A DNA stretch of 64,000 nucleotides from Minisyncoccota bacterium (GTDB lineage Bacteria; Patescibacteriota; Minisyncoccia; Phycocordibacterales; UBA2100): contig JAGOVW010000001.1 of NCBI GenBank assembly GCA_018060545.1, forward strand, positions 61,203 through 125,202, in the 5' to 3' direction. The notes under the pieces are model-generated. The model was not told where the DNA came from. It worked only from the letters and a program-made list of their open reading frames with translations, and ran no database searches. Positions 2,893 to 53,367 of this stretch are shown here, one piece after another. The position numbers were made by a program, and so were the translations under genes. Positions within the stretch are counted from its first letter, which is position 1, and each line of letters opens with the position of its first letter.

Positions 2893-4101
2893 ATGGCCTT
2901 GCTAGACCTAAAAGCACTTAACCTCGCCCTTGATGAACTCCGCGAAGAGCGTGGCGTTTCTCGCGATTCTGTTATTTCTGCTATTGCGACCGCACTCGCA
3001 ACCGCATACCGCCGCGAATACGGCAAGAAAAGCCAAATCATCCGCTGCGCCTTTAACCCTCAGACGGGAGAAATGGAGTTCAAGCAGGCAAAAATTGTTG
3101 TAGACGATTCTCTTGTGTACGACATCGAGAAGGAGCCAGAGCGAGCCGAGGATGACCACCGCTCTCGCTTTAACCCAGAGCAGCACATCATGATTGATGA
3201 TGCGCGTCGCATGAAAAAGGATGTGCAGCTCGATGAGGAAATTACTTTCCCCCTTGAGACGCGTGAAGATTTCGGCCGCATTGCTGCGCAAGCCGCCAAG
3301 CAGGTGATTCTCCAAAAGATTCGTGAGGCAGAGCGAGAGTCCATGATGGCAGAGTACGGTGAGCGCGAAGGTGAAATCGTCACCGGTCACGTACAGCGTT
3401 TCGAGCGAGGAAACCTCTTCATTGATTTGGGCCGCGCTACCGCTATCCTCCCCTACGATGAACAGATTCCTGGAGAGCGCTACCGCCAGGGTGAACGCAT
3501 TCGCGCACTCCTCTTTAAGGTGGACGAGAACGCTCGAGGCTCATTCCTCAAACTGTCTCGTTCACACCCACGCTTCCTCACCAAGCTGTTTGAAACCGAG
3601 GTGCCAGAGCTTGCGCAAGGCACGCTTGAAGTGAAAGCAGTGGTTCGCGAGCCAGGAAGTCGTGCGAAAATCGCTATCTTCTCAAAGGATTCACACATTG
3701 ATCCAGTGGGTGCGCTCGTTGGTCAGCGTGGTGTTCGTGTTGCAGTGGTTACTTCTGAACTCGGCGGCGAGAAAATCGACGTGGTGGAATGGAGCGAGAA
3801 TCCTGCGGAATTCGTACGTGAAGCACTGAAGCCTGCTGAAATCCAAGATGTCACTATTTCTGAGGACGACGGCCGCGCAACTGCTCAGGTTGCTGAAGAC
3901 CAGCAGTCACTTGCAATTGGTCGCGGTGGCCAGAACGTGCGCCTCGCTGCGCGCCTCACGGGTTGGAAAATTGATATCCGCTCAATGGGAGGTTCTTCGC
4001 TTGCTGACGAAAGCGGCCAGGCTCCTGCTCCAGAAGCACCAGCAGTAGATCCTGAAGTAGCTGCTGCAGCAGCTGTAGAGGCAGAAAAGCTTGAAGAATA
4101 A
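2893..4101 (+). CDS. nusA: Transcription termination/antitermination factor NusA
   Basis: N-terminal LDLKALNLALDELREERGVSRDSVISAI, an S1 region, and KH domains (GRGGQNVRLAARLTGWKIDI). No rimP upstream or infB downstream in this window. Confidence 0.9.
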   Translation: MALLDLKALNLALDELREERGVSRDSVISAIATALATAYRREYGKKSQIIRCAFNPQTGEMEFKQAKIVVDDSLVYDIEKEPERAEDDHRSRFNPEQHIMIDDARRMKKDVQLDEEITFPLETREDFGRIAAQAAKQVILQKIREAERESMMAEYGEREGEIVTGHVQRFERGNLFIDLGRATAILPYDEQIPGERYRQGERIRALLFKVDENARGSFLKLSRSHPRFLTKLFETEVPELAQGTLEVKAVVREPGSRAKIAIFSKDSHIDPVGALVGQRGVRVAVVTSELGGEKIDVVEWSENPAEFVREALKPAEIQDVTISEDDGRATAQVAEDQQSLAIGRGGQNVRLAARLTGWKIDIRSMGGSSLADESGQAPAPEAPAVDPEVAAAAAVEAEKLEE

Positions 4102-4116
4102 AACACAGGACGACAC

Positions 4117-4147
4117 GAAAAGCCGCGCACTTTGTGCGCGGCTTTTC
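4117..4147. terminator. Bidirectional intrinsic terminator hairpin between convergent nusA and the 850-aa ORF
   Basis: gaaaagccgcgcacTTTGgtgcgcggcttttc. An 11-bp GC-rich stem is flanked by an A-run and a T-run. A near-identical copy lies at 7581-7611. Confidence 0.65.
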
Positions 4148-4148
4148 G

Positions 4149-6698
4149 TTATACTCCCACTTCAGCAGGCTTCTTTAACACCCGCACCAATATATCTTTT
4201 AAAGTTTCTGGCTCGGCTTTCGTGATAGGTAGGCCAGCAATAATCTGTTCCAATAGTTCGTTAAACCCGCGTTCTTTCATGAGGGGCAGATCAGCTTCCA
4301 TACGCGCACGAACAGCATCTGGTTGTTCGGAAATGAACGTCTCTATTGTTGTATACGCCGCACCCACTCCGCCAGAGACCCACTCGTCACGCGTATCGGC
4401 AAGGTGCCCCAAAATCGACGCCATTCTTCCTGAAGACGGCACAGTGATGTGTGCGAACCCATCCTTCGCACTCTCGGCGCATTCAGGTACAGACCAGCCA
4501 CCGCCGTTAATGACCAGCGTTGCGGTTGGATGACCTTCTGAAATTCGGGCGAAAAGAGCCTGTCTCCCAATTGCATGCGGCAAGTAGCCATTATAATCAC
4601 CGCCCGGCGACCATCCGGCAATGAATCCAGACAAAATCATGTCGATGGGCAACGCTGGAAAGAAATCTTTAAGCATTTCCCTCGGGTACCCCGTATCGCC
4701 AATATCCATACTTAACCCTGGCTCGAACCCGACAATAGTAAAAGCAGGAACTTCCTCTTCCCGTAAGGTCGCCTTGTATTCCCACCATTTGCGAGCAACA
4801 GTTTCCGCAATCTTTCCTGACATCGTGCCTTGCATACATATGTTTGCACCTGTTTCTTTTCCTGCCTGAATGACGGCGCTCGCAATTGCATCAATTTTTC
4901 CTTGGTCTTCAACGTTCTCAAAAGCGGCCCCAGTTACTAACACCAGGGTAGGCGCAGGCTTGAGCCCAAGTGCACGCACTGCTTTCCCTTCGAGGGAGTA
5001 CGGCATACCATGCTCATTTCCCGCTTTGACCACTAGAAAGCGAGGATGTGTAGCTGGCAGCGATGCAAGAAAATCGGCAACCTTTTGCCTCGAATCTTCT
5101 GGCAAGGAGGCGACGTATTGGTCGTCCATCATCACCTCCTCCCGCTTGGGATTACCTAAATATTTCTCGACAATAGCGGGTATCGATTGTCCGGTGAGAC
5201 GGCTGCCATACCACGTCGCAATCTTTTCTTTTAAAAAGTCATTAAATACGGCTACCTCCCTATCTTCAATGGTTTTTTTGGCTATTGCCACTTTGAATGC
5301 TGCCGCTTGAGCAAGAAGTGACTCGTACTCAGTAGGCGGCATTTCATTTACTAACACAGAACACAATCCTTCAATTGCAGAGGTAACTCCTGAGACGAGC
5401 GCGGCGTCAATATCAATATTTTTTTCGTGTACGGTACGAGCGAATTGCGACACCTCTCGCTGTAATGTTTGGAAATGAAAATACGGAAGTAACAGACCTT
5501 CGAATGCTTCAAACGACGCGTTGTCGATCACAGGGATGCTCTCGTAGTTTCTTTGCAAACACTGCGCAGGTGAAGCTTCATTACCTTGTTCCACGACACC
5601 TTGTGGACCCATATACTCTGCGCGAATGTGTTTCTTCGTATCTATGAGCACGCGCACATAACGCTCGCCCGTCCAAAATCCTACGAACTCAACACCATCG
5701 GCGCGCTTACCACGCACCGCTTCGATGCCGAGCGCACTCAAATCTGCATAGCTGAGTTGCTCAAAGAGAACTGAAAGTATCTTTGAAACTTCTGCGTTAA
5801 GTGGGTCGGTGTACAGCCTTTCTCGCCTATTTTTATATACATCTTTGTTGAACCGAGCTGTTTCATGAGAATCATGTACAGAGCGCCAGGTGGCGGGATG
5901 CTGCGCGCGATACAGCTCGTCGCCATCACCTCCCTTGTATCCATGAAAGTTGAGGCGTGACGCAAGATTCAGGAGTGTCATTACTCGCGAAACAGCCTCT
6001 CTTTGCATATCTTCCGGGTTTACGTATTCACCCATATCGGCAGTTAAAAAGGCACGTAGTCGTTCGCTGGGAATATGTTGCCCGCCCGCGCAAGCATCAA
6101 CGAGCAAATCGAGATTGCCACGCATATACATAAGCAGCCGCGCCGCTTTGTCTGTCGAAGGATCCGGTAGTGCATGCTGTTCGTAGATATTCAATTCCTG
6201 GATGCGGTCATGGAGCAGTCCCGCCTGAAACGTGCTCAGTTCTGCAACAGACCCGCTGTCTCCTCGTGCTTCTGCAGTGCGCAGCGCCAATTCCATCTCG
6301 GCAAGATTGACTGACTCTTCGCCACTCACGACTCCTCCTTGTACACCAACACGATGAACCGCATCGAGGAGCGCCTCTGAAACCTCGGTATACGGAACAT
6401 GCGAGTGGACACCATCTTTACCACCAATATCTATGCGCAAACCATTAGCGTCTGGCCACAGCGAGACAGGAACTCCTTCCTGCTTCCATTGCTCAATGAG
6501 ACTTTTCCCCGCACTGCCTCGGTGTACAAAAAGCCCTTCAACAAAACTAGTGCGTTTCTCGATGGGAGCACCACGCAATTCTGCTTTGCGCAGCTGCTCG
6601 ATGATGCTGCCTGCGTCTTTGGGAGATTGGATGTTTGCCAGTACGCTGCCTATTTCCTGTTCCATGTGTTGCTGTGGTTGCCGTGGCGGCCTGTTCAT
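4149..6698 (-). CDS. Large hypothetical protein (~849 aa). The C-terminal ~250 aa resemble a SLOG-superfamily Rossmann domain (DprA/LOG-like); the N-terminal ~600 aa have no recognizable domain
   Basis: Track ORF 4149..6779. I place the start at Met 6698 (MNRPPRQ...) because an intrinsic terminator hairpin (6714-6752) sits inside the longer N-terminal extension. C-terminal motifs: LVLVTGAAF...GKIDAIASAVIQAGKETGANICMQGTMSGKIAETVARKW, FTIVGFEPGLSMDIGDTGYP, ILSGFIAGWSPGGDYNG, LVINGGGWS. Confidence 0.5.
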   Translation of the reverse strand: MNRPPRQPQQHMEQEIGSVLANIQSPKDAGSIIEQLRKAELRGAPIEKRTSFVEGLFVHRGSAGKSLIEQWKQEGVPVSLWPDANGLRIDIGGKDGVHSHVPYTEVSEALLDAVHRVGVQGGVVSGEESVNLAEMELALRTAEARGDSGSVAELSTFQAGLLHDRIQELNIYEQHALPDPSTDKAARLLMYMRGNLDLLVDACAGGQHIPSERLRAFLTADMGEYVNPEDMQREAVSRVMTLLNLASRLNFHGYKGGDGDELYRAQHPATWRSVHDSHETARFNKDVYKNRRERLYTDPLNAEVSKILSVLFEQLSYADLSALGIEAVRGKRADGVEFVGFWTGERYVRVLIDTKKHIRAEYMGPQGVVEQGNEASPAQCLQRNYESIPVIDNASFEAFEGLLLPYFHFQTLQREVSQFARTVHEKNIDIDAALVSGVTSAIEGLCSVLVNEMPPTEYESLLAQAAAFKVAIAKKTIEDREVAVFNDFLKEKIATWYGSRLTGQSIPAIVEKYLGNPKREEVMMDDQYVASLPEDSRQKVADFLASLPATHPRFLVVKAGNEHGMPYSLEGKAVRALGLKPAPTLVLVTGAAFENVEDQGKIDAIASAVIQAGKETGANICMQGTMSGKIAETVARKWWEYKATLREEEVPAFTIVGFEPGLSMDIGDTGYPREMLKDFFPALPIDMILSGFIAGWSPGGDYNGYLPHAIGRQALFARISEGHPTATLVINGGGWSVPECAESAKDGFAHITVPSSGRMASILGHLADTRDEWVSGGVGAAYTTIETFISEQPDAVRARMEADLPLMKERGFNELLEQIIAGLPITKAEPETLKDILVRVLKKPAEVGV

Positions 6699-6713
6699 GC
6701 GCCGATTATCGCA

Positions 6714-6752
6714 CAAAAAAAATGGGACGTGCACGAATGCACGTCCCAAAAA
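6714..6752 (-). terminator. Intrinsic terminator (minus-strand orientation) for the upstream high-GC ORF. It lies just upstream of the 850-aa ORF start
   Basis: Minus-strand read: gggacgtgca-ttcg-tgcacgtccc followed by TTTTTTTT. A GATAAT -10-like hexamer (revcomp of 6705-6710) lies between the hairpin and the ATG at 6698, which suggests a very short or leaderless 5' UTR. Confidence 0.5.
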
Positions 6753-6842
6753 CATCACCTCGCTTTCGGTTCGACCCACACAGTCGCCTGTGTGGGGCTC
6801 TCAGCAATAGAGAGCGTTAGATTCGAACACCGTATTCAAGGT

Positions 6843-7409
6843 TCAGTCACGCGGAGGATCACCCGCGTTCACTCGCCCATCTTCGTAGAGTTTCGGAAAG
6901 GAGGCGTCGTCGACGACCCAGATGCGGTTCCTCGCGATATTCGTCACGAGGTAGTCGCCAGAGCCGACTTCTAGCGGTCCTTTCTTCGACTCAGACGTGA
7001 CGAAGCGGCACGCCTTCTTGAACTTCCCGAGCACAACAACTGGCGCCGTCTTCTGTGCAAGAACGACATGTGTCTCCGAGCCGTACAGCTCGAAGAGGCG
7101 GTCGCCGCGCGGGTCGTCCCCAACGGCAAGTTCGCGGATCACCCGGAAGTCGACCGTGAATTGGTCGTTCGGGTACTCGTTGATCTTGCCCTCCCCATTG
7201 TCCATCGCCGCAACCTGGTGCCAATGACGGCCGCCGATTGCGTCGAGCTGGCCCCACGGCGCCTTGATGGCAACGGTGCCCAGCGCTTCCGGAACCAAGC
7301 ATGCCGCGATGTTGCCTTGCGGATTGGGGCGAGCCCAACCATGCACGGGCATCATGTAGCGGGCTGAGGGGGGAGTTTCCTTCGAGAAGGTCGGTTTCCA
7401 AAAAAACAT
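6843..7409 (-). CDS. Hypothetical protein in a visibly high-GC segment (candidate horizontally acquired gene)
   Basis: 188-aa ORF with a GGAGAG RBS 5 nt upstream of its ATG. The third codon positions are G/C-rich, unlike its neighbours. No family recognized (…PGDYLVTNIARNRIWVVDDASFPKLYEDGRV…). Confidence 0.5.
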   Translation of the reverse strand: MFFWKPTFSKETPPSARYMMPVHGWARPNPQGNIAACLVPEALGTVAIKAPWGQLDAIGGRHWHQVAAMDNGEGKINEYPNDQFTVDFRVIRELAVGDDPRGDRLFELYGSETHVVLAQKTAPVVVLGKFKKACRFVTSESKKGPLEVGSGDYLVTNIARNRIWVVDDASFPKLYEDGRVNAGDPPRD

Positions 7410-15428: not shown

Positions 15429-15449
15429 GTGCGAGGTGGGAGAATCGGC
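15429..15449 (-). repeat. ~19-nt duplicate of the 3' end (T-arm and acceptor) of the nearby tRNA-Gly(TCC) gene. Possible integration att-site scar or pseudo-tRNA fragment
   Basis: Plus-strand gtgcgAggtgggagaatcgG here, against gtgcgGggtgggagaatcgA in the tRNA gene at 15624-15643 (1 mismatch in the 19-nt core). Confidence 0.5.
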
Positions 15450-15484
15450 GCAACTCACTAGTCTCTCGCAAGCTTCGCGCTCGA

Positions 15485-15549
15485 GAAAGTGGTTCCTGCC
15501 CTGGCTCGCTCGTTTTCTACCTCGCAACGCTCGGTATTCATTCGAGCTC
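15485..15549. repeat. Conserved ~60-nt element, copy 1 (the second copy is at 22258-22320). It is adjacent to a tRNA locus; function unknown
   Basis: gaaagtggttcctgccctggctcgctcgttttctacctcgcaacgctcggtattcattcgagc. It is ~80% identical by eye to the 22258 copy, in the same orientation. Confidence 0.5.
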
Positions 15550-15623
15550 CACCTTTCGATTCCCAACCTATCGCTACAGAAACAAAGTCGCCCTACATGT
15601 ACATGTAGAGCTTACTGTTTCAG

Positions 15624-15694
15624 TGCGGGGTGGGAGAATCGAACTCCCGACAAAAGTTTGGAAAACTCTCGTTTTACCACTAAACTAACCCCGC
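15624..15694 (-). tRNA. tRNA-Gly (anticodon UCC)
   Basis: Minus-strand GCGGGGTTAGTTTAGTGGTAAAACGAGAGTTTTCCAAACTTTTGTCGGGAGTTCGATTCTCCCACCCCGCA. The cloverleaf can be drawn (acceptor 7 bp, D-stem GTTT/AAAC, anticodon loop TTTCCAA, T-loop TTCGATT). CCA is not encoded. Confidence 0.85.
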
Positions 15695-15728
15695 AATTCG
15701 CACGTGTAGAGAGAATACACTACGGGCC

Positions 15729-15765
15729 GCAAAAACCAAAGGACCCTCGATGGGTCCTTTGGTTT
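15729..15765. terminator. Terminator hairpin for the small acidic ORF on the minus strand
   Basis: aaaaaccaaaggaccctcgatgggtcctttggttttc; a perfect 13-bp stem. Confidence 0.55.
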
Positions 15766-15773
15766 TCATTCCC

Positions 15774-15926
15774 TTATTCATCATCTTCCTCCTCATCAAA
15801 ATCCCCCATCAGAGGATCATCCTCGTCGGAAAGAGGCAAATCCTCGTCGCCCAAGAGGCCAGCAGCACCCTCCGGCATATCGATATCTTCTTCCTTCTCT
15901 TGAAGATCTTTTTCGTCGTCCGCCAT
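15774..15926 (-). CDS. Candidate 50-aa highly acidic small protein (MADDEKDLQEKEEDIDMPEGAAGLLGDEDLPLSDEDDPLMGDFDEEEDDE)
   Basis: ATG...TAA on the minus strand with a dedicated downstream hairpin. Below the track's size cutoff. The overlapping plus-strand ORFs (15436..15903, 15750..16034) look spurious. Confidence 0.3.
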   Translation of the reverse strand: MADDEKDLQEKEEDIDMPEGAAGLLGDEDLPLSDEDDPLMGDFDEEEDDE

Positions 15927-18087: not shown

Positions 18088-19875
18088 CTAACTGTGGAGC
18101 CCTATTTGGTACTCATACAATTTCTTGTAGACACCATCGTTTTTCTGAATCAACTCCTGATGTGTGCCCTGCTCTGCAACGGTGCCCTCCTCGAACACCA
18201 CAATGTTCGACGCTTTTCGTACGGTAGACAAGCGGTGTGCAATGATAATCGTGGTGCGGCCCTGCATAAGCTGCTCTAATGATGCGGTGATTTGGGACTC
18301 TGTTTTTGCATCGAGGGCAGATGTCGGCTCGTCCAAAATAAGAATTTTTGGATTACGCAGAATAGCTCGCGCAATAGCGATACGTTGTTTCTGACCAACA
18401 GAAAGCTTCACCCCACGCTCCCCCACGAGCTGTTCATATTTCTCAGGAAATGAGTCGATAAAGTCGTGGGCAAATGCTTGCTGTGCAGCAGCGACCACCT
18501 CTTCGTCGCTCGCTGAGCGTCTGCCGAAACGTATATTGTTCAGCACGGTGTCGTTAAAAAGTACAGGTTCCTGAGGCACCACCGCAATCATCTCTCGTAG
18601 TTGGCGAAGCGAAACGTCGCTCGTTGAAACGTTCCCCACTCGAACATGCCCACTCATTGGAAAATAGTACCCTCCCATCAGCTCGATCGCAGTACTCTTT
18701 CCAACTCCTGATTCCCCAACAAAAGCCACCGTTTCTCCATCGTGGATTGAGAAAGAAACATCTCTTAGAACAGTGCGTTCTGGTGCGTCAGGGTACGCAA
18801 ATGACACATGATCAAACACCACAGCGCCACCCTGAGCCGTGGGCGCACCGGCGCGCTCATAAACTTCCTGGTCTCGGCTAAGTATGCCCTGCACCTCATA
18901 GATATTGGTAAGTCCATTTTGAATCGTATTCCAATTCATGGCGAGACTGGCGAGAGGGCCAAACACCATAGCGCTGTAGCCATTAAGCGCCACCAAAGAA
19001 CCGACTGAGAGGTCTCCGCTCGTTACAAACCACACCGAACCCGCAAACACAGCAAGTTGCGTAAACACGACCGACAGCCTTTGGAAAAAACGAATCTTGA
19101 CCCAAATCATCTCAGAAGTATTCGAGGCCACACTAGCCTTTACGACGAAACCTTCATACATCTTCCGTTCGGCAAAGCCTTCGGCCGTTGCTTGCTTTAC
19201 CGCATGAATACTTCCCAATAGGTCATAGGTGTCACCATATGCTTCGTGCCAGGCTTTGTTGTTAGCCAGCTGTAATTGCGCTAGCGGAAGTGCAGCACGT
19301 ATAGAAACAGTGGCATACACAACCATGCCAAAAATTATGACGCCAGCAAGGATCGGCTGAAGAAACAGCGCGAAGCAGATGCCGATAACCATGCTGAGTA
19401 TTTGGGGCCCTATGTTCAGTAGAATGTTGTCGACCAGCTGCGACGCGTAACCACTTGAGCGACTGATCTTATTCAAGGTTTCGCCGCCTTTTTGTTCCTT
19501 ATGAAAACTGATCGGCAATCCAAGCAAATATGAATACCAACGATGTGCGGATGTGGCGTACACATGATTCCCCAGTTTTGTTGCACGAAGACCCAGCACC
19601 CAATCAATGAGCGCCGAGCAAAGTGTCACCAGAAACCAGAGCGAAAGAGGTACGTACCAGGATACTGGGGTTTCAGATCCAAGCGAAATAAGGCCGTCAA
19701 CAAAACGACCAACCGCATATGGCACTACCGCACCCAAGAGAGCCGAAGTGAGGCCAAGGAGAAGCAACACCCAGGCTTGAGCACGGTTTTCGGTAATAAA
19801 CGTAAGCAGTACTCGAGCAGCTTTAAGGAGATCGGTCCAGGACAGGTCTTTACGTTGATTACTGTGGGCGGACAT
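18088..19875 (-). CDS. ABC transporter, fused permease-ATPase (type I exporter, MsbA/multidrug-like)
   Basis: 6-TM N-terminal half. Walker A (GESGVGKST), the ABC signature (LSVGQKQRIAIARA) and Walker B (ILILDEPTSALD). Start trimmed to Met 19875 to avoid overlap with tRNA-Pro. Confidence 0.85.
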   Translation of the reverse strand: MSAHSNQRKDLSWTDLLKAARVLLTFITENRAQAWVLLLLGLTSALLGAVVPYAVGRFVDGLISLGSETPVSWYVPLSLWFLVTLCSALIDWVLGLRATKLGNHVYATSAHRWYSYLLGLPISFHKEQKGGETLNKISRSSGYASQLVDNILLNIGPQILSMVIGICFALFLQPILAGVIIFGMVVYATVSIRAALPLAQLQLANNKAWHEAYGDTYDLLGSIHAVKQATAEGFAERKMYEGFVVKASVASNTSEMIWVKIRFFQRLSVVFTQLAVFAGSVWFVTSGDLSVGSLVALNGYSAMVFGPLASLAMNWNTIQNGLTNIYEVQGILSRDQEVYERAGAPTAQGGAVVFDHVSFAYPDAPERTVLRDVSFSIHDGETVAFVGESGVGKSTAIELMGGYYFPMSGHVRVGNVSTSDVSLRQLREMIAVVPQEPVLFNDTVLNNIRFGRRSASDEEVVAAAQQAFAHDFIDSFPEKYEQLVGERGVKLSVGQKQRIAIARAILRNPKILILDEPTSALDAKTESQITASLEQLMQGRTTIIIAHRLSTVRKASNIVVFEEGTVAEQGTHQELIQKNDGVYKKLYEYQIGLHS

Positions 19876-19935
19876 AAAAATAGCAATGAAAAATGTAGAC
19901 CGAGGCACGCACCTGGAGCCAAAAACCAATATGTG

Positions 19936-20006
19936 TCGGGGCGCCGAGAATCGAACTCGGTCTATCTGGTCCCAAACCAGACGTACTACCGGTATACTAC
20001 GCCCCG
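19936..20006 (-). tRNA. tRNA-Pro (anticodon UGG)
   Basis: Minus-strand CGGGGCGTAGTATACCGGTAGTACGTCTGGTTTGGGACCAGATAGACCGAGTTCGATTCTCGGCGCCCCGA. Anticodon loop TTTGGGA; T-loop TTCGATT. Confidence 0.8.
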
Positions 20007-20084
20007 TATTCTTGCGCACCGGTCGAGGAAATATACCATGTGTGGTTATTTTGTCTAAAGGACATTGCTATTATGAAATGTCCT

Positions 20085-48331: not shown

Positions 48332-49183
48332 ATGGTAGACACTCGTGGTATGTACACCCTGGCTGGCCTTTCTGTGGCTGGATTGCTGATTGCGGGAGGA
48401 ATCAGGTTAGGAATCCTGCATCAACCTTCAATCGTGTACCAAGTACCTAAAAACGCACTGCCGACACCAAGCCCCTTTCTTAAAGAAACCGACTCCGACG
48501 GAGACAGCCTTCCCGATTGGCAAGAAGAACTCGCAGGAACAGACCCTTTAAATAAAGACTCTGACGGTGACGGGACCAACGATGCACTTCCGGCAGAAGT
48601 AACAGAGGGACTTGAGGAAACAGCAACCGAGGCTATCACCGAGCGACTCATTAGTCGGTATGTCGCGCTCAAACAGCAGGATGCGTATAGCGAGGAAAAA
48701 GGCGTTGCATTGGCTGAAGATTTAACGAACAGCCTCAACATAGATATTCCTTTTGTGCCATACACCAGAGGGGAGCTCACCGTCACAGCGGCAACACCAT
48801 CAGAGAGAAAACAACACGAAGCTCAGGTGCGAGCCATGCTCGCACCCTTAAAAGCATTTGCGGAGCCCGACATAGCTATTTATGCTCGCTACGTACAGAA
48901 CAAAGACATTGCCGCGCTTGCAGAAGTGCGTGAGCATGGACTTGCATACATCAAAGCAGGGGAGGGCATGATGCACATCAACCCACCATCCGACATTGTC
49001 GACGACCACCTTGAAGCGGCGAATGCGTTGGTATACTTTGGCGCAACACTTCAAAAAATGGCAGAGCGTGCCGAAGATCCGATAGCCGCACTCTCGCTGT
49101 TGCGTACCTATAACCAGGCTGAGCAGTACCTAGGGTTTACGATAGGGGTCCTCGACCGCTACTATAAGGAGGCATCGCTATGA
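48332..49183 (+). CDS. Membrane-anchored hypothetical protein with thrombospondin-type-3-like Ca-binding repeats
   Basis: N-terminal TM; [32 protein letters not shown] (DxDxDG repeats). Confidence 0.45.
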
Positions 49184-51183
49184 AGATTCCTCACTTTTTT
49201 TTAGTGCACGTCGTGACCCTTACACTTACGTTGCCTTTTTTTACCTTCGCACAAAGCAGTGGTACCGGATTGTTGCGCGACGGTGTCTTTGGATGTGCAG
49301 CAGGTACGTATGGCATGCAAGTAGGAACACTCACCGCGATTGGGGGAGTGTACGTGCCGGTCAACGACGCAGCAGTAACCCAGAACACCGGGTACCTGGT
49401 GTACAAAGAGTGTGTACTTGATGGCGTCACTAAACGCATGGGTGAAGCAGCGAGCGCTTCTATTGTGAGCAGTGTGCTGCGCTGGCAAAACACCGCACGT
49501 GGTGGGAACCCACAGTTCGTCACGAACCAAGATGCGGAACGATTGCAGGTTGCAGACAAGGCTCGCGCCGAATACCTCAAGAAATACAACCTACAAAATC
49601 TATGCACACCCTTCCAGGCAACCGTGCGAAAGAATGCGGCCGTGGCGTACATGAAAACCACGCGAGATCCCAACAGTGTCTACTCATGCACACTAAGCAC
49701 GGCTGACACGGGGAAAATACAAAACTTCCTCGCAGGCAACTTCTCAGCGGGTGGTTTTGCTATGTTTATGGAAACAGCGCTCAACCCACAAAACCAGCTC
49801 TACTTTGCCTATGAGATGTACGAAGAAACCTCTCGTCTCGCGGAACAGAGAGCGTTAGGAAACCTCACCGAAGAGCTTGATTGGGGCCGCGGTAATCTTT
49901 CGGTAAAGAGGGAAGTTCGCACTCCAACCGGGACGGGTGAAGATCGCATTACACAGGAGATCATTACGCCGGGCTATCTCATTGCAGAGCTGGTAACTCA
50001 GGCAGCTGGTTCTGGTTTTAGACAACTCGAAACAGCAAATGAGATTGACCAAATTGTGAGCGCGCTATTCTCAGGTATCACCAACCAGATTCTTACGAAC
50101 GCTGGCGGTCTTCAAGGCATCAGTGCTAGCCAGCTTGGTGCTGCACCGTACCTTGATCGCCTTACCGCGGAGAGTAATGCAGGGGTTCGCAATGCTGCCT
50201 CTGGTGCAGGATTGGCCGTGTTGAGCTCATCACTTGCAGTAGAAGAAGCATTTAACAAAACAAAGAAGGATAGCAAATCTCTTTTGGAAACTGCCGCATC
50301 ACAGCTTCGCCGAGCAGAGGAGCGTTGTTGGGATATTCTAATTCCGAAAGTACGTGAGTACGCACAGACAGTCGCGTGCACCACGTCAGGCGATCCCCCT
50401 GTGCAGTCTTGCTCCACGCCGGCCCAGCTGCGGATCTCAACCTCCACACAGATGATTAACCGGGGTACCCTTGCAGTGTCTATTTCATCTGGATCAACGG
50501 TTGCCAATGGTGCACTCTACACCCTCGAAGCGCCGCCCACAGCAATCGTTCGCAGTGGATCAGCACAACTGCGCGCCGCGGAAACACAGAACTTTTCTTC
50601 AACCACAGCGCTCGGTATCCCTATTGAATCTGGGCCTGCACCATCCCCAGGTGGGGCACTGAGCCTCGTTATATCAAGCACATCGCCATTCTCGGGTGGT
50701 GCACTATCGCTTGCACTACAAAGTGCCCAAGTACTCCCTGTTGGCGAAGTGCGCTTCCCACTAACTCCCATTTCTCCCTTTAATCAAGCAGTCGTTTCGC
50801 TCATTGTGGGCGTTGTACAGCAATTCTCTGAAGTCATCATCGAAGGAAAGATCACCCCGCTTCTAGACGGTGTTCTTAATGATATCGAAACATCCAATGA
50901 AGCACTTACCCAACTGGCAACCCTTGCAGCTGATTTGCAAAATTCAACCTCAGTAACAGCACAGCGTATCGCACTTGAGCGTTTGGACGCACTCGTTGCA
51001 CAACGCCTCCTACACACGGCATACGACGTAAAAGATGCTTCTGCTCAGAAAGACGCCTTGCAAGGAAGCATGACCCTCTTGGTGGAGGATACAGTCAAAG
51101 AGTGGAGTACGGGGAGTGGTTGGTGCAACGCAGAGAACCCCGACGTAGTGCGTCAATGGTATGAGCGGTGGAGAGTGCAGTAG
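49180..51183 (+). CDS. Large secreted hypothetical protein (667 aa) of the T4SS-like cluster
   Basis: Signal peptide ([16 protein letters not shown]); no TM; no recognized domain. Confidence 0.5.
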
Positions 51184-51213
51184 CGCAGCGGTACACCTTG
51201 ATATACTGCATGT

Positions 51214-53367
51214 ATGAAAGGCCGCCTTGCCGGGACGCTTTTATGCATGGCACTCATGGGCGTCTTTTTCTCAGTGCCTGCAGATTTTGCATTTGCGCAA
51301 ACGCCACCCCCGGCAACAACCAACACCTCCGCAACACCTCAAGTAGAAACATGTGCTGCCGTTTTGGGTGGGTGGGTGCCTGGGTGGATGACCAGCTTTT
51401 CTTGTGTCATGCGCGCCATGGTGAGCAGTCTGGGCGGCATGATAATCGCACTTGCTGGGTGGACACTTGGGGTAGCCGGTCTCCTGTTTAACTACCTGAT
51501 AGACACTACGATAGTGGGTTTTGGAACACTCTATAACAACTCCCTCATCACCGGCGTTGAAACAGGGTGGGCAGCGTTCCGTGATGTGGCGAATATTGCC
51601 ATCATAGGGGCGTTCGTATTTGTGGCGATATCCACCATATTGGGAAGTAATTCTTATGGTGTGCGGCAATTCCTTGCACGAATTTTAATTGCGGCAATTC
51701 TGATCAATTTCAGTATCTTTTTCGCAAAATTCTCAATAGACGTGTCACACATAGTTGCAGCTCAGTTCGACAAGGCAATCGACATGGGCCGCCCTACAGC
51801 CACCATAAGCACCACCGAGATCAACTCGCCACCTGGCATTGCTGGTTCATTCTTCAGCGCCATGAAGATAACCTCTGCATGGAAATCTGACGAGATAGTA
51901 GCGAAGGTGGCGCAAAATAATGGCCTTGCCTCGGCATTTATATACATTTTGTTTGTAGCAACAATATTTTTTGCCGCCGCTCTGATATTGCTGTATGGAG
52001 CTTTTCTGTTAGTCGTGCGTATCGTTATGCTCATATTCCTTCTTTTGGTATCTGCACTTGCCTTTGGCTCGATGGCCATACCGGGGTTTACTGAATGGTG
52101 GGAAAAGTGGCTGCAAGAGTTTTTGAAAAACGTGCTATTTGGACCACTGCTTATTATGTTTTTGTGGGCAACGCTGACTATCGCAAACACCCTCAGTAAC
52201 ACCAGCGGCTCACTTACTGACCTGGTGAGCAAGCCAGGCTCACCGATTGGTATTGCTCTTCTCCTCAATTACTTAATCGTTCTTGGTCTGTTGTACGGAT
52301 CTATTAAAATTGCCCAGAGCTTGTCGGTTACTGGCGCCAACAAATTGCCAAGTTGGCAGAAGTCCCTGCGAATGGGTACTCTCACCCCCGCGAAACTCGC
52401 TGCAAGCACACTGGGGTTTGCTGCACGCCAAAGTATTGGCCGCGGCGCAGACAAACTCAAAGGAAGATACGGAGAATCACTTACCGAAGCATCGAAGAAA
52501 AGTGGCGCTGCTGGAATCGAACGCTTTGGTGCTCGTATGGCGCTCAAAAGCCTGGATGGTGCCCGCACCGCTTCATTCAATGCCAATCGTATGCCTGGCG
52601 TCATGAAGGATCTCGGATCGAACATTGCGAAACAGTTTAAGGGTGACGGTAAAGGTGGTTTTGCTGCAGGCCAAGAGTACAACGACAAGATGAAGAAGGA
52701 GCGCGAACAGAAAGCTATTGCAGAAGCCGCAAAATCAGCCGCACCAACAACCAAGGAAAAGAAGGACAATTTCCAGCGCGAAGCGTATGCCTCCGAAGAG
52801 CGTAAGAAGTACGACGAGGAGAAACGCCGTGCTGATGGTCTTGAGAAGAGCAAGGACCGAGACCAATGGGTTGCAGAGGTTAAGAGATTCAAGGAGAGTC
52901 AGGCCCGCGGCGAGACACTGTCGAAAGATGAGCAGGAAAGTTTCGACAAGGTATCTGCAAGACTCAATACTCGAGATGAAGTTATCAAATCAGCTAAGGC
53001 TGCAGCACAAGCTGCGCGCAAGAACTACGAGGACAAGAAGGAAGCATTCAAGCCTGGCGATTCTTCACACACTGAGGCTGTCAGCAAAGTACTGAAAGAT
53101 GCAGAAAAAGCCGCAGACGCATTCAAAGCGGCAGGGGAAGCAGCTAAGAAGACTTCTGATACACGGCTGGCCGAAAAACTTACCAAAATCGCCCAGAGCA
53201 AACCTTCATTTGTTGAACGCCTACGCGGTATTGAACCTAAGCAAGACGAATACAGGAAGCAGGAACTACTGAGTCAGTACAAGCTCGGCGAAAAGAAAAA
53301 GGAGAAAGCCGCAGAATTCGAGAGCTTAGGAGCGAAGCTTGATAAACTAGGGGACGCGAAGAAGTAA
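51214..53367 (+). CDS. VirB6/TrbL-like polytopic inner-membrane protein with a long charged, coiled-coil C-terminal tail
   Basis: Signal peptide, then ≥6 hydrophobic helices, then a K/E/A-rich tail. The architecture is typical of VirB6-like T4SS channel proteins in Gram-positive/CPR systems. Confidence 0.5.
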   Translation: MKGRLAGTLLCMALMGVFFSVPADFAFAQTPPPATTNTSATPQVETCAAVLGGWVPGWMTSFSCVMRAMVSSLGGMIIALAGWTLGVAGLLFNYLIDTTIVGFGTLYNNSLITGVETGWAAFRDVANIAIIGAFVFVAISTILGSNSYGVRQFLARILIAAILINFSIFFAKFSIDVSHIVAAQFDKAIDMGRPTATISTTEINSPPGIAGSFFSAMKITSAWKSDEIVAKVAQNNGLASAFIYILFVATIFFAAALILLYGAFLLVVRIVMLIFLLLVSALAFGSMAIPGFTEWWEKWLQEFLKNVLFGPLLIMFLWATLTIANTLSNTSGSLTDLVSKPGSPIGIALLLNYLIVLGLLYGSIKIAQSLSVTGANKLPSWQKSLRMGTLTPAKLAASTLGFAARQSIGRGADKLKGRYGESLTEASKKSGAAGIERFGARMALKSLDGARTASFNANRMPGVMKDLGSNIAKQFKGDGKGGFAAGQEYNDKMKKEREQKAIAEAAKSAAPTTKEKKDNFQREAYASEERKKYDEEKRRADGLEKSKDRDQWVAEVKRFKESQARGETLSKDEQESFDKVSARLNTRDEVIKSAKAAAQAARKNYEDKKEAFKPGDSSHTEAVSKVLKDAEKAADAFKAAGEAAKKTSDTRLAEKLTKIAQSKPSFVERLRGIEPKQDEYRKQELLSQYKLGEKKKEKAAEFESLGAKLDKLGDAKK

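Follow-up and report, generated by a model that had tools for sequence, protein, structure and literature searches.

A TRPM-type SLOG domain protein and a companion structured RNA in a bacterium of the candidate phyla radiation

The SLOG gene and the structured RNA upstream of it

The stretch of DNA analysed here, 64,000 nucleotides from contig JAGOVW010000001.1 (hereafter the window), is part of the chromosome of a bacterium of the candidate phyla radiation (CPR; Patescibacteria, Parcubacteria group), and it also encodes dnaA, rny, pnp, uvrD, purB and a VirB4-like gene. Its PNPase shares 70-75% identity with the PNPases of metagenome-assembled genomes of Candidatus Kaiserbacteria/Paceibacterota. 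The subject of this work is a gene on its minus strand, called here the SLOG gene, whose hypothetical product ends in a SLOG domain of the type found in TRPM channels, together with a short structured RNA located directly upstream (Table 1). An original prediction, made from the letters of the DNA, had proposed at this place an open reading frame (ORF) of about 850 residues. Such a frame is present, with 849 residues, and the four motif strings quoted in that prediction are all found in its translation. The longest ORF of the locus extends from 4149 to 6779 on the minus strand and begins with GTG. Comparison of the sequences nonetheless assigns the true start to the ATG at 6698, because the NCBI annotation gives 849 residues, the homologue P0002 begins at the identical methionine, a terminator hairpin (stem 6748-6723 followed by U8) sits within the GTG extension, and insertions and deletions (+2, +1) break the frame in the extension between the window and the related locus L001, where the DNA is about 86-91% identical and the encoded relative is 70% identical to the window protein. 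These frame-shifting changes rule out the GTG at 6779.

The non-coding block between the SLOG gene and the preceding ORF, which encodes 188 residues, is 86-91% identical between the window and L001, as compared with 80% and 68% (nucleotide identity) for the flanking genes, and its folding z-score is -7.4. The RNA element contained in this block comprises three helices. The closing helix P1 is UUCGA/UCGAA, with the variants UCGGA/UCCGA and UUCGG/CCGAA; the P2 hairpin carries a nearly invariant loop of 7 nucleotides, UAUUGCU; and the loop of P3 is of the tetraloop type and is followed by a linker and the terminator. The same architecture is found ahead of the SLOG gene in L002, L083, L086/L087 and L088, loci with unrelated ORFs upstream. 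In a structure-guided alignment 98.3% of the cells are paired, versus 32-48% when the partners are slid, and double compensatory changes occur in 18 of the 23 pairs, values that none of 500 shuffles reached; these statistics refer to five independent sequences in an alignment fitted by hand. RNAalifold independently gives the same three helices, with compensatory changes in 17 of 20 pairs, and both the G-U pairs and the U-tracts of the terminators put the RNA on the strand of the SLOG gene. A covariance model was searched against both strands of 345 kb, that is, the window plus 34 loci, and it gave one match per locus, always directly upstream of a gene for the protein form of about 850 residues (E from 1e-17 to 1e-7); neither the rest of the window nor unrelated CPR loci gave any. 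No further copies were obtained in scans of sequence collections, where six viral pattern matches were negative with the covariance model. A scan of the window at the Rfam gathering thresholds returned four tRNAs only and no family for the element, and a permissive Rfam scan of 6650-6900 returned only a similarity of the terminator hairpin to sbrA and SorY, well under the thresholds. The UAUUGCU loop is without a conserved antisense site (AGCAAUA) in or near the gene. The element is, in short, a structured RNA absent from Rfam and linked in five independent lineages to the SLOG gene, of which it is a putative functional partner or regulator.

In all eight loci with the form of about 850 residues, a TATAAT-like box lies downstream of the terminator and 6-8 nucleotides ahead of the start codon. 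The terminator-bounded unit with a possible leaderless start that had been described earlier was borne out as regards its boundaries, which are a hairpin followed by U8 upstream (6748-6715) and a 13-bp hairpin, shared with nusA, downstream (4118-4146). The leaderless start is plausible in view of the box TGcGATAAT at 6713-6705, but it is not special to this gene: among the 31 gene starts of the window, five have a -10-like hexamer ending exactly six nucleotides ahead of the ATG. A Shine-Dalgarno-like motif occurs in seven of these 31 genes, and such counts suggest that many mRNAs of this Paceibacterota genome are leaderless. Since the -10-like box is placed between the terminator and the ATG, the mRNA of the SLOG gene is probably leaderless and without the RNA element. 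The latter could be a small RNA of its own, or the 3′ end of the transcript from upstream, kept next to the gene, or else a leader controlling read-through.

Domain architecture and putative ligand pocket of the protein

The C-terminal part of the protein, of about 305 residues, is a SLOG domain of the TRPM/LSDAT clade and not a DprA or LOG domain. This assignment is based on distant members that exceed the Pfam cut-off, on TRPM matches obtained with Foldseek, and on a family profile that reaches TRPM by sequence. The sole Pfam match of the window protein, below threshold, is LSDAT_prok (PF18171, "SLOG in TRPM, prokaryote"), with 17.3 bits when scanned whole and 21.3 bits when its C-terminal 283 residues are used alone, against a gathering cut-off of 25.4; the match is confined to the middle of the model (positions ~105-185 of 195). 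LSDAT_euk is also matched, weakly, over the N-terminal part of the SLOG domain. Six distant members (P0019, P0021, P0022, P0023, P0030 and P0046) pass the LSDAT_prok threshold with 30.7-40.5 bits, and the membership of the window protein is therefore a matter of transitive homology. Among the 23 members examined, 17 match LSDAT_prok and 7 match LSDAT_euk at E <= 1, and any other Pfam family is matched by one of them at most. In the literature, the MHR1/2 region of TRPM channels is classed as the LSDAT family of SLOG domains, which has relatives in bacteria (PMC13143021; PMC6459960).

The structural evidence points in the same direction. The full-length AlphaFold (AF2) model, with a mean predicted local distance difference test (pLDDT) of 63.8, shows a Rossmann-like alternation of strands and helices over residues 584-752 (β584-589, α599-616, β619-623, α629-642, β655-658, and then α706-718, β725-731, α736-745, β749-752). 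The 50 top Foldseek matches in the PDB are all TRPM2/3/4/5/7/8 channels (E down to 1e-4, over 310-350 columns). By sequence, the profile of 23 members finds the crystal structure of TRPM2 MHR1/2 (7aov_A) with E = 6.8e-8 and zebrafish TRPM2 (6drj_A, chain residues 142-344) with E = 4e-6. TRPM proteins account for 30 of the 32 matches listed, and all 30 with E < 0.01 are TRPM2, TRPM7 or TRPM8. As in the SLOG superfamily, the β-α-β Rossmann-like core carries glycine-rich loops after strands 1 and 2 and after the central strand, and these loops are well conserved (G590 in 72 of 80 family representatives; G624-T625-x-S627-G628 in 71-73; N731-G732-G733 in 74-78). The original prediction of a SLOG Rossmann fold in the C-terminal third is thus supported by the Pfam matches of distant members, by AF2 and Foldseek, which show a Rossmann-like fold with TRPM SLOG matches, and by the profile search. 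Its likeness to DprA and LOG did not hold: in the Pfam comparison, which it had itself suggested, LSDAT_prok was the family found, and no member matches PF02481 or PF03641 at E <= 1.

The fold shared with TRPM MHR1/2 (LSDAT_euk, PF18139; zebrafish TRPM2 6DRJ, 7AOV) extends to the loops, which read GGAKNF, GGTHAG, DGGPGT and GSGRLAD in TRPM2 and TGAAFEN, QGTMSG, NGGGWS and SSGRMAS in the window protein. In zebrafish TRPM2, six side chains of MHR1/2 contact ADP-ribose: T186 and Y271 contact the adenine, R334 the α-phosphate, T312 the β-phosphate, and T150 and R278 the terminal ribose (PMC7201885). The TRPM2 segment and the 80 SLOG segments of the family were aligned to the family hidden Markov model (HMM), in which each of the six contact positions was placed with a posterior probability of at least 0.95. 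Five of the six contacts are matched in the window protein (T625, Y705, R712, S736 and R758) and four are conserved across the family, which makes four to five of the six TRPM2 side chains retained. The arginine of the R712 type is present in the subfamily of the window protein, and the position of T150 is occupied by V588, where the family has mostly Ile or Val. At least 80% of the family agree at 27 positions, 13 of which are identical in zebrafish TRPM2, while N619, W696, H708, R718, N731 and E739 are conserved in the family and differ from TRPM2. The last of these, E739, sits at the position of the Glu in the LOG motif PGGxGTxxE, where TRPM2 has Thr. The bacterial family is further distinguished from TRPM2 by a poorly modelled insert of its own (residues 659-714). 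To judge from this alignment, the adenine/diphosphate half of the TRPM2 pocket appears to be kept and the half facing the distal ribose to vary between subfamilies. The best inference for the putative ligand is an ADP-containing compound (ADP-ribose, NAD or a derivative), since four of the six TRPM2 contacts are conserved family-wide and five in the window protein; the distal group may depend on the subfamily, and the ligand is perhaps other than ADP-ribose itself because the terminal-ribose contacts are not conserved.

The SLOG domain is N-terminal in TRPM proteins and C-terminal in every member of the bacterial family, whose N-termini differ. Neither the ankyrin-like MHR3/4 regions, nor the ion-channel domain, nor NUDT9H of TRPM is present, and the hosts are bacteria. 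What stands in front of the SLOG domain in the window protein is a module of 520 residues made up of two small three-stranded sheets (78-102 and 326-353), a four-helix bundle (393-501) and other helices, and modelled with confidence (pLDDT 83.9; predicted template modelling score, pTM, 0.84). No structural or sequence relative of these 520 residues was detected, and they have no Pfam match. The earlier statement that the roughly 600 upstream residues match nothing recognizable stands in this sense, but the boundary of the module is at residue 520. On the basis of the model, it is proposed that this module represents a new fold. A group of charged residues is conserved in it (R49, D83, H98, H100, E136, R140, R291, K306, R329, R349, K356, H357, E397, E400 and E452), several of them in the motifs WPDANGLRIDIGGKDGVHSHVPY, VLIDTKKHIRAE and FEAFEGLLLPYFHF. 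The signatures of HEPN (Rx4-6H), 2H phosphoesterase (HxT/S) and PLD (HxK) were compared with the conserved residues by eye and none of them fits. The LSDAT_prok proteins, which are the best Pfam match of the family (PF18171; Burroughs et al. 2015), share the SLOG domain, whereas the window protein has the fused N-terminal module, absent from Pfam, and is without conflict-system neighbours.

Distribution of the family and gene neighbourhood

A word-index search of 5.8 billion clusters gave five relatives (100, 86, 85, 70 and 32% identical), and a second search of this kind with the alignment of 23 sequences gave the same five proteins and nothing further. With HMMER, an exhaustive profile search over 1.84 billion representatives gave 81 cluster representatives, 67 of them with E <= 1e-10. 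The protein had been described as an orphan, which is right as to its rarity in the word-index search but not in view of these 81 representatives. Nearly all clusters of the family are singletons; where the sources name a protein, it is as "hypothetical protein", and Candidatus Gracilibacteria is the second host that they name. Motif-seeded scans of 185,579 GTDB species representatives, of JGI metagenome contigs and of the viral contigs of IMG/VR found no relatives. The protein belongs, therefore, to a rare family that is restricted to CPR bacteria as far as named sources go, and it is not a singleton.

The context of the gene was surveyed at ten independent loci, and the family as a whole has no conserved protein-coding neighbour. 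The original prediction had placed the gene "alone between nusA and ppa"; this is correct for nusA, which is convergent downstream, but an ORF of 188 residues (6843-7409) lies between the gene and ppa. The surroundings are of the housekeeping kind (nusA and ppa, dnaK and dnaJ, ribosomal protein L25, def/fmt), and synteny is preserved between relatives of 70% identity. Genes for TIR, SMODS, CD-NTase/cyclase, SIR2, nuclease or SLATT proteins were not seen among the neighbours at about 10 independent loci; with no PADLOC match and no signal-gene partner, the association with conflict systems that had been considered was not observed. Genes of nucleotide metabolism lie near several members, a possible theme that does not recur gene for gene. 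For instance, the long-form member P0019 is encoded just downstream of a cluster of NAPRTase, NAD synthase (NadE) and a NadD-like gene (Preiss-Handler NAD salvage) at L084 (1799-6873), a PRTase gene is found at L085, adenylosuccinate synthase (purA) at L089, Lyase_1, amidohydrolase, thyA and DHFR genes at L096, and ppa in the window. A linkage to NAD salvage was rejected, as it is present at L084 and not at the related P0024 locus, L096.

Ahead of the gene, eight loci have a co-oriented ORF of 148-193 residues. These ORFs are mostly unrelated to each other, and in several loci the "ORF" merely runs into the conserved RNA box, its stop codon being provided by CTAG. In the window it is the 188-residue protein MBP9668739.1, which has no match in Pfam, NCBIfam, PADLOC, PHROG or the PDB. 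A homologue of it, 54% identical, lies upstream of the distant SLOG homologue P0013 at L090. Its family adjoins the SLOG gene in the window, L001 and L090, and occurs without it in L092, L093 and L095. The upstream ORF was rejected as a conserved operon partner for both reasons, that is, the lack of homology of most of these ORFs and the occurrence of this family without the SLOG gene. As separate observations, MBP9668739.1 bears a weak, unproven resemblance to PGDYG (PF14083) around "GSGDYLVTN", and on the CPR contig of L095 a canonical LOG/DprA-type SLOG protein (3552-4253; matches to Lysine_decarbox, LDcluster4 and, weakly, DNA_processg_A) lies about 1.1 kb downstream of the homologue of the 188-residue protein, probably by coincidence. 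At L088 (63-6599), in one lineage, the SLOG gene, an upstream ORF of 181 residues and the RNA element are inserted together between dnaK and dnaJ; this ORF gives a weak match to a nucleoside 2-deoxyribosyltransferase-like family (PF15891, E = 0.03).

Elsewhere in the window, two adjacent ORFs of 667 and 717 residues (49180-53367, plus strand), with no Pfam match at E <= 1e-5, lie just upstream of a VirB4/TraG-like ATPase gene (55149-56981) and may encode CPR-specific components of type IV secretion. Predicted minus-strand genes for tRNA-Pro(UGG) (19935-20006) and tRNA-Gly(UCC) (15623-15694) overlap the mechanically listed long ORFs 18088-20019 and 15436-15903, whose starts or reality call for a check.

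Table 1. Features of the SLOG gene, its product and its upstream region (positions in the window unless another locus is named).
Feature	Position	Strand	Remarks
Bidirectional terminator	4118..4146	.	13-bp hairpin, A4/T4 flanks, 2 nt past stop codon; shared with convergent nusA
SLOG gene, complete coding sequence	4149..6698	-	849 residues + stop; NCBI MBP9668738.1, hypothetical protein KBE09_00405; metagenome-assembled genome of Candidatus Paceibacterota (Pacebacteria)
N-terminal module, residues 1-520	5139..6698	-	Helices, sheets, bundle; confident model
Motif WPDANGLRIDIGGKDGVHSHVPY, residues 81-103	6390..6458	-	D83 invariant; G86, L87, H100, P102 at least 90%; H98 19/22 (subfamily like the window protein)
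Motif VLIDTKKHIRAE, residues 350-361	5616..5651	-	K356, H357 conserved; end of second β-meander
Motif FEAFEGLLLPYFHF, residues 396-409	5472..5513	-	E397, E400 conserved
C-terminal module, residues 545-849	4152..5066	-	Common to all 80 family representatives, always at extreme C-terminus
SLOG (LSDAT/TRPM MHR1/2-type) Rossmannoid core, residues 583-770	4389..4952	-	Pfam, Foldseek and profile matches
GTMSG loop, residues 624-628	4815..4829	-	T625 = zebrafish TRPM2 T186 (adenine); T in 73/80
Y705	4584..4586	-	Aligned to zebrafish TRPM2 Y271 (adenine stacking); Y in 68/80
R712	4563..4565	-	Aligned to zebrafish TRPM2 R278 (terminal ribose); R 19/80, M 40/80
NGGGWSVPE, residues 731-739	4482..4508	-	S736 = zebrafish TRPM2 T312 (β-phosphate), S/T 72/80; E739 76/80
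G757-R758	4425..4430	-	R758 = zebrafish TRPM2 R334 (α-phosphate); R in 78/80
Extended -10-like box TGcGATAAT	6705..6713	-	6 nt ahead of ATG; candidate leaderless promoter
Intrinsic terminator	6715..6748	-	11-bp stem, 7 G-C pairs, then U8; between structured RNA and promoter
Conserved non-coding block	about 6715-6842	-	Includes RNA and terminator; window/L001 comparison
Three-helix RNA, ~60 nt	6770..6827	-	P1, CUAR box, P2, P3; covariation, covariance model
RNA element, L001	9953-10010	same strand as SLOG gene	
RNA element, L002	792-854	same strand as SLOG gene	
RNA element, L083	7846-7910	same strand as SLOG gene	
RNA element, L086	7868-7935	same strand as SLOG gene	
RNA element, L088	2685-2742	same strand as SLOG gene	
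Hypothetical protein MBP9668739.1	6843-7409	-	188 residues; family of 11 clusters

Proposed function, alternatives and significance

In this finding a domain family already known occurs in a new architecture, accompanied by a new RNA. As to function, the explanation regarded here as probable, with a confidence just above even, is that of a CPR protein of two modules, in which a TRPM-type SLOG nucleotide sensor is joined to an N-terminal output unit of new fold. The protein would be cytoplasmic; its SLOG domain would bind ADP-ribose, NAD or a derivative in the equivalent of the TRPM2 pocket; and this binding would control the N-terminal module of 520 residues, which carries invariant Asp, His, Glu, Arg and Lys residues in a cluster and would act as an enzyme or a nucleic-acid-binding unit. 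The gene would be transcribed from its own promoter as a leaderless mRNA, with the three-helix RNA of about 60 nucleotides and the terminator lying upstream. By analogy, a sensor-to-effector logic like that of ThsA (SIR2-SLOG) or TRPM2 (SLOG-channel) is proposed; the identity of the ligand, the activity of the output module, its coupling to the sensor and the role of the RNA are all inferred. Several observations weigh against this explanation. The window protein stays under the Pfam threshold for LSDAT_prok, its full-length model is of moderate confidence (pLDDT 63.8) with residues 659-714 disordered, two terminal-ribose contacts are unconserved (V588 for T150, and Met for R278 in half of the family), and the conserved E739 leaves room for an enzymatic role of the SLOG domain. 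The N-terminal module is acidic overall (pI 5.5), which is atypical for RNA-binding proteins. No gene for a signal-generating enzyme was found nearby. Finally, the covariance model did not detect the RNA element either at L089 and L090 or at the long-form loci, and where it is present, upstream of both terminator and promoter, it may be part of the upstream transcript.

CPR bacteria depend on nucleotide or NAD salvage. The protein might accordingly be placed there as an enzyme, with a SLOG domain that works as a LOG-like hydrolase (of the phosphoribohydrolase/N-glycosidase type) and an N-terminal module that serves as scaffold or substrate recruiter. This is considered unlikely, yet it has several points in its favour. 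SLOG domains have been described both as sensors and in nucleotide processing (PMC6459960); E739 is kept in 76 of 80 representatives, where TRPM2 has Thr; H708, N731 and R718 are conserved polar residues specific to the family; and genes of nucleotide metabolism are found near members at L084, L085, L089, L096 and in the window. LOG (PF03641) and DprA/Smf (PF02481) belong to the same superfamily, and the family motif NGGGW(S/T)xxE resembles the LOG motif PGGxGTxxE in its glycines and its Glu, but it lacks the Pro and the second GT. Furthermore, no member matches the LOG family of Pfam, neither LOG nor DprA is among the PDB matches, and the nearest relatives by sequence and fold are the non-catalytic TRPM domains. 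The possible neighbourhood theme shows no gene-for-gene recurrence, housekeeping genes are everywhere in small CPR genomes, and a large conserved N-terminal module with a charged cluster of its own is hard to square with a scaffold. Nucleotide processing is taken as the less likely role of the SLOG domain, and nucleotide sensing is favoured. That the sensor serves anti-phage defence or conflict, like ThsA of the Thoeris system, and is activated by a signal from a TIR, SMODS or cyclase protein encoded elsewhere, is improbable. In conflict systems centred on nucleotides, SLOG domains, including prokaryotic LSDAT, recur as sensors (Burroughs et al. 2015, cited in PMC6459960), a sensor joined to an unrecognised effector fits such a role, and the family is rare and patchy, with clusters that are nearly all singletons. 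ThsA has the same layout, being a standalone cytoplasmic protein in which the effector is N-terminal and a SLOG domain at the C-terminus binds a nucleotide derived from NAD, but the N-terminal module of the window protein is not SIR2, there is no thsB/TIR partner, and its SLOG domain is of the LSDAT clade and not of the ThsA type. Neither PADLOC nor PHROG gives a match, none of the signal or effector genes looked for is a neighbour at about 10 loci, the contexts are of housekeeping type with stable synteny at 70% identity, and viral contigs contain no relatives. The nearest analogy of the original prediction, a DprA/Smf-like protein that processes DNA in natural transformation, shares the superfamily fold and the glycine-rich loops, and CPR genomes do carry competence-type and type IV pilus genes (T2SSE and T2SSF lie near the L001 locus). 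It is scarcely credible, and effectively excluded, given that PF02481 is matched by no member, that no DprA structure appears among the PDB matches by fold or by sequence, and that the pocket residues fit a site for a mononucleotide or ADP-ribose.

With regard to the RNA alone, a cis-acting leader (riboswitch or attenuator), in which the terminator would control read-through into the SLOG gene, is a minor but appreciable possibility. The order of a three-way junction, an intrinsic terminator and a gene is the classic layout of a riboswitch, the stems covary around the invariant sequences UAUUGCU and CUAR, a pattern also seen in ligand-binding aptamers, and the element is on the strand of the SLOG gene at all loci. 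Nonetheless, the -10-like box that separates terminator and start codon in the eight loci, with no Shine-Dalgarno motif, points to a separate leaderless transcript, no promoter is evident upstream of the element, and there is no Rfam match. The RNA and the SLOG protein might also form together a previously unknown two-component module, found only in CPR bacteria in the data examined, in which the N-terminal domain, with its invariant Arg/Lys/His/Asp cluster, would bind or process this very RNA in a nucleotide-gated ribonucleoprotein, controlled by an ADP-ribose-like or NAD-derived nucleotide that the SLOG domain would sense; this is rather improbable. Type III toxin-antitoxin systems (ToxIN) and retrons likewise have a structured RNA directly upstream of a co-oriented protein gene, and in ToxIN a terminator also separates RNA and gene. 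The likeness to these systems is one of gene order alone: here the RNA is single-copy and does not consist of tandem repeats, and there is neither a reverse transcriptase nor a ToxN-like nuclease.

Several implications follow for the family and its hosts. By keeping the ADP-binding half of the TRPM2 pocket, the family offers a simple, soluble bacterial system for the function of this pocket and for its evolution before the fusion to a channel. The N-terminal module of 520 residues is confidently modelled and strongly conserved and has no known structural relative, and the retention of a protein of 850 residues by the tiny genomes of CPR bacteria suggests that it is important. The covarying RNA, as partner or as leader, would be a new class of RNA tied to nucleotide sensing in a lineage with hardly any experimental characterisation. 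If the proposal of a two-component module is true, the RNA-protein module would be a bacterial counterpart of the ligand pocket of TRPM2 with a wholly different output.

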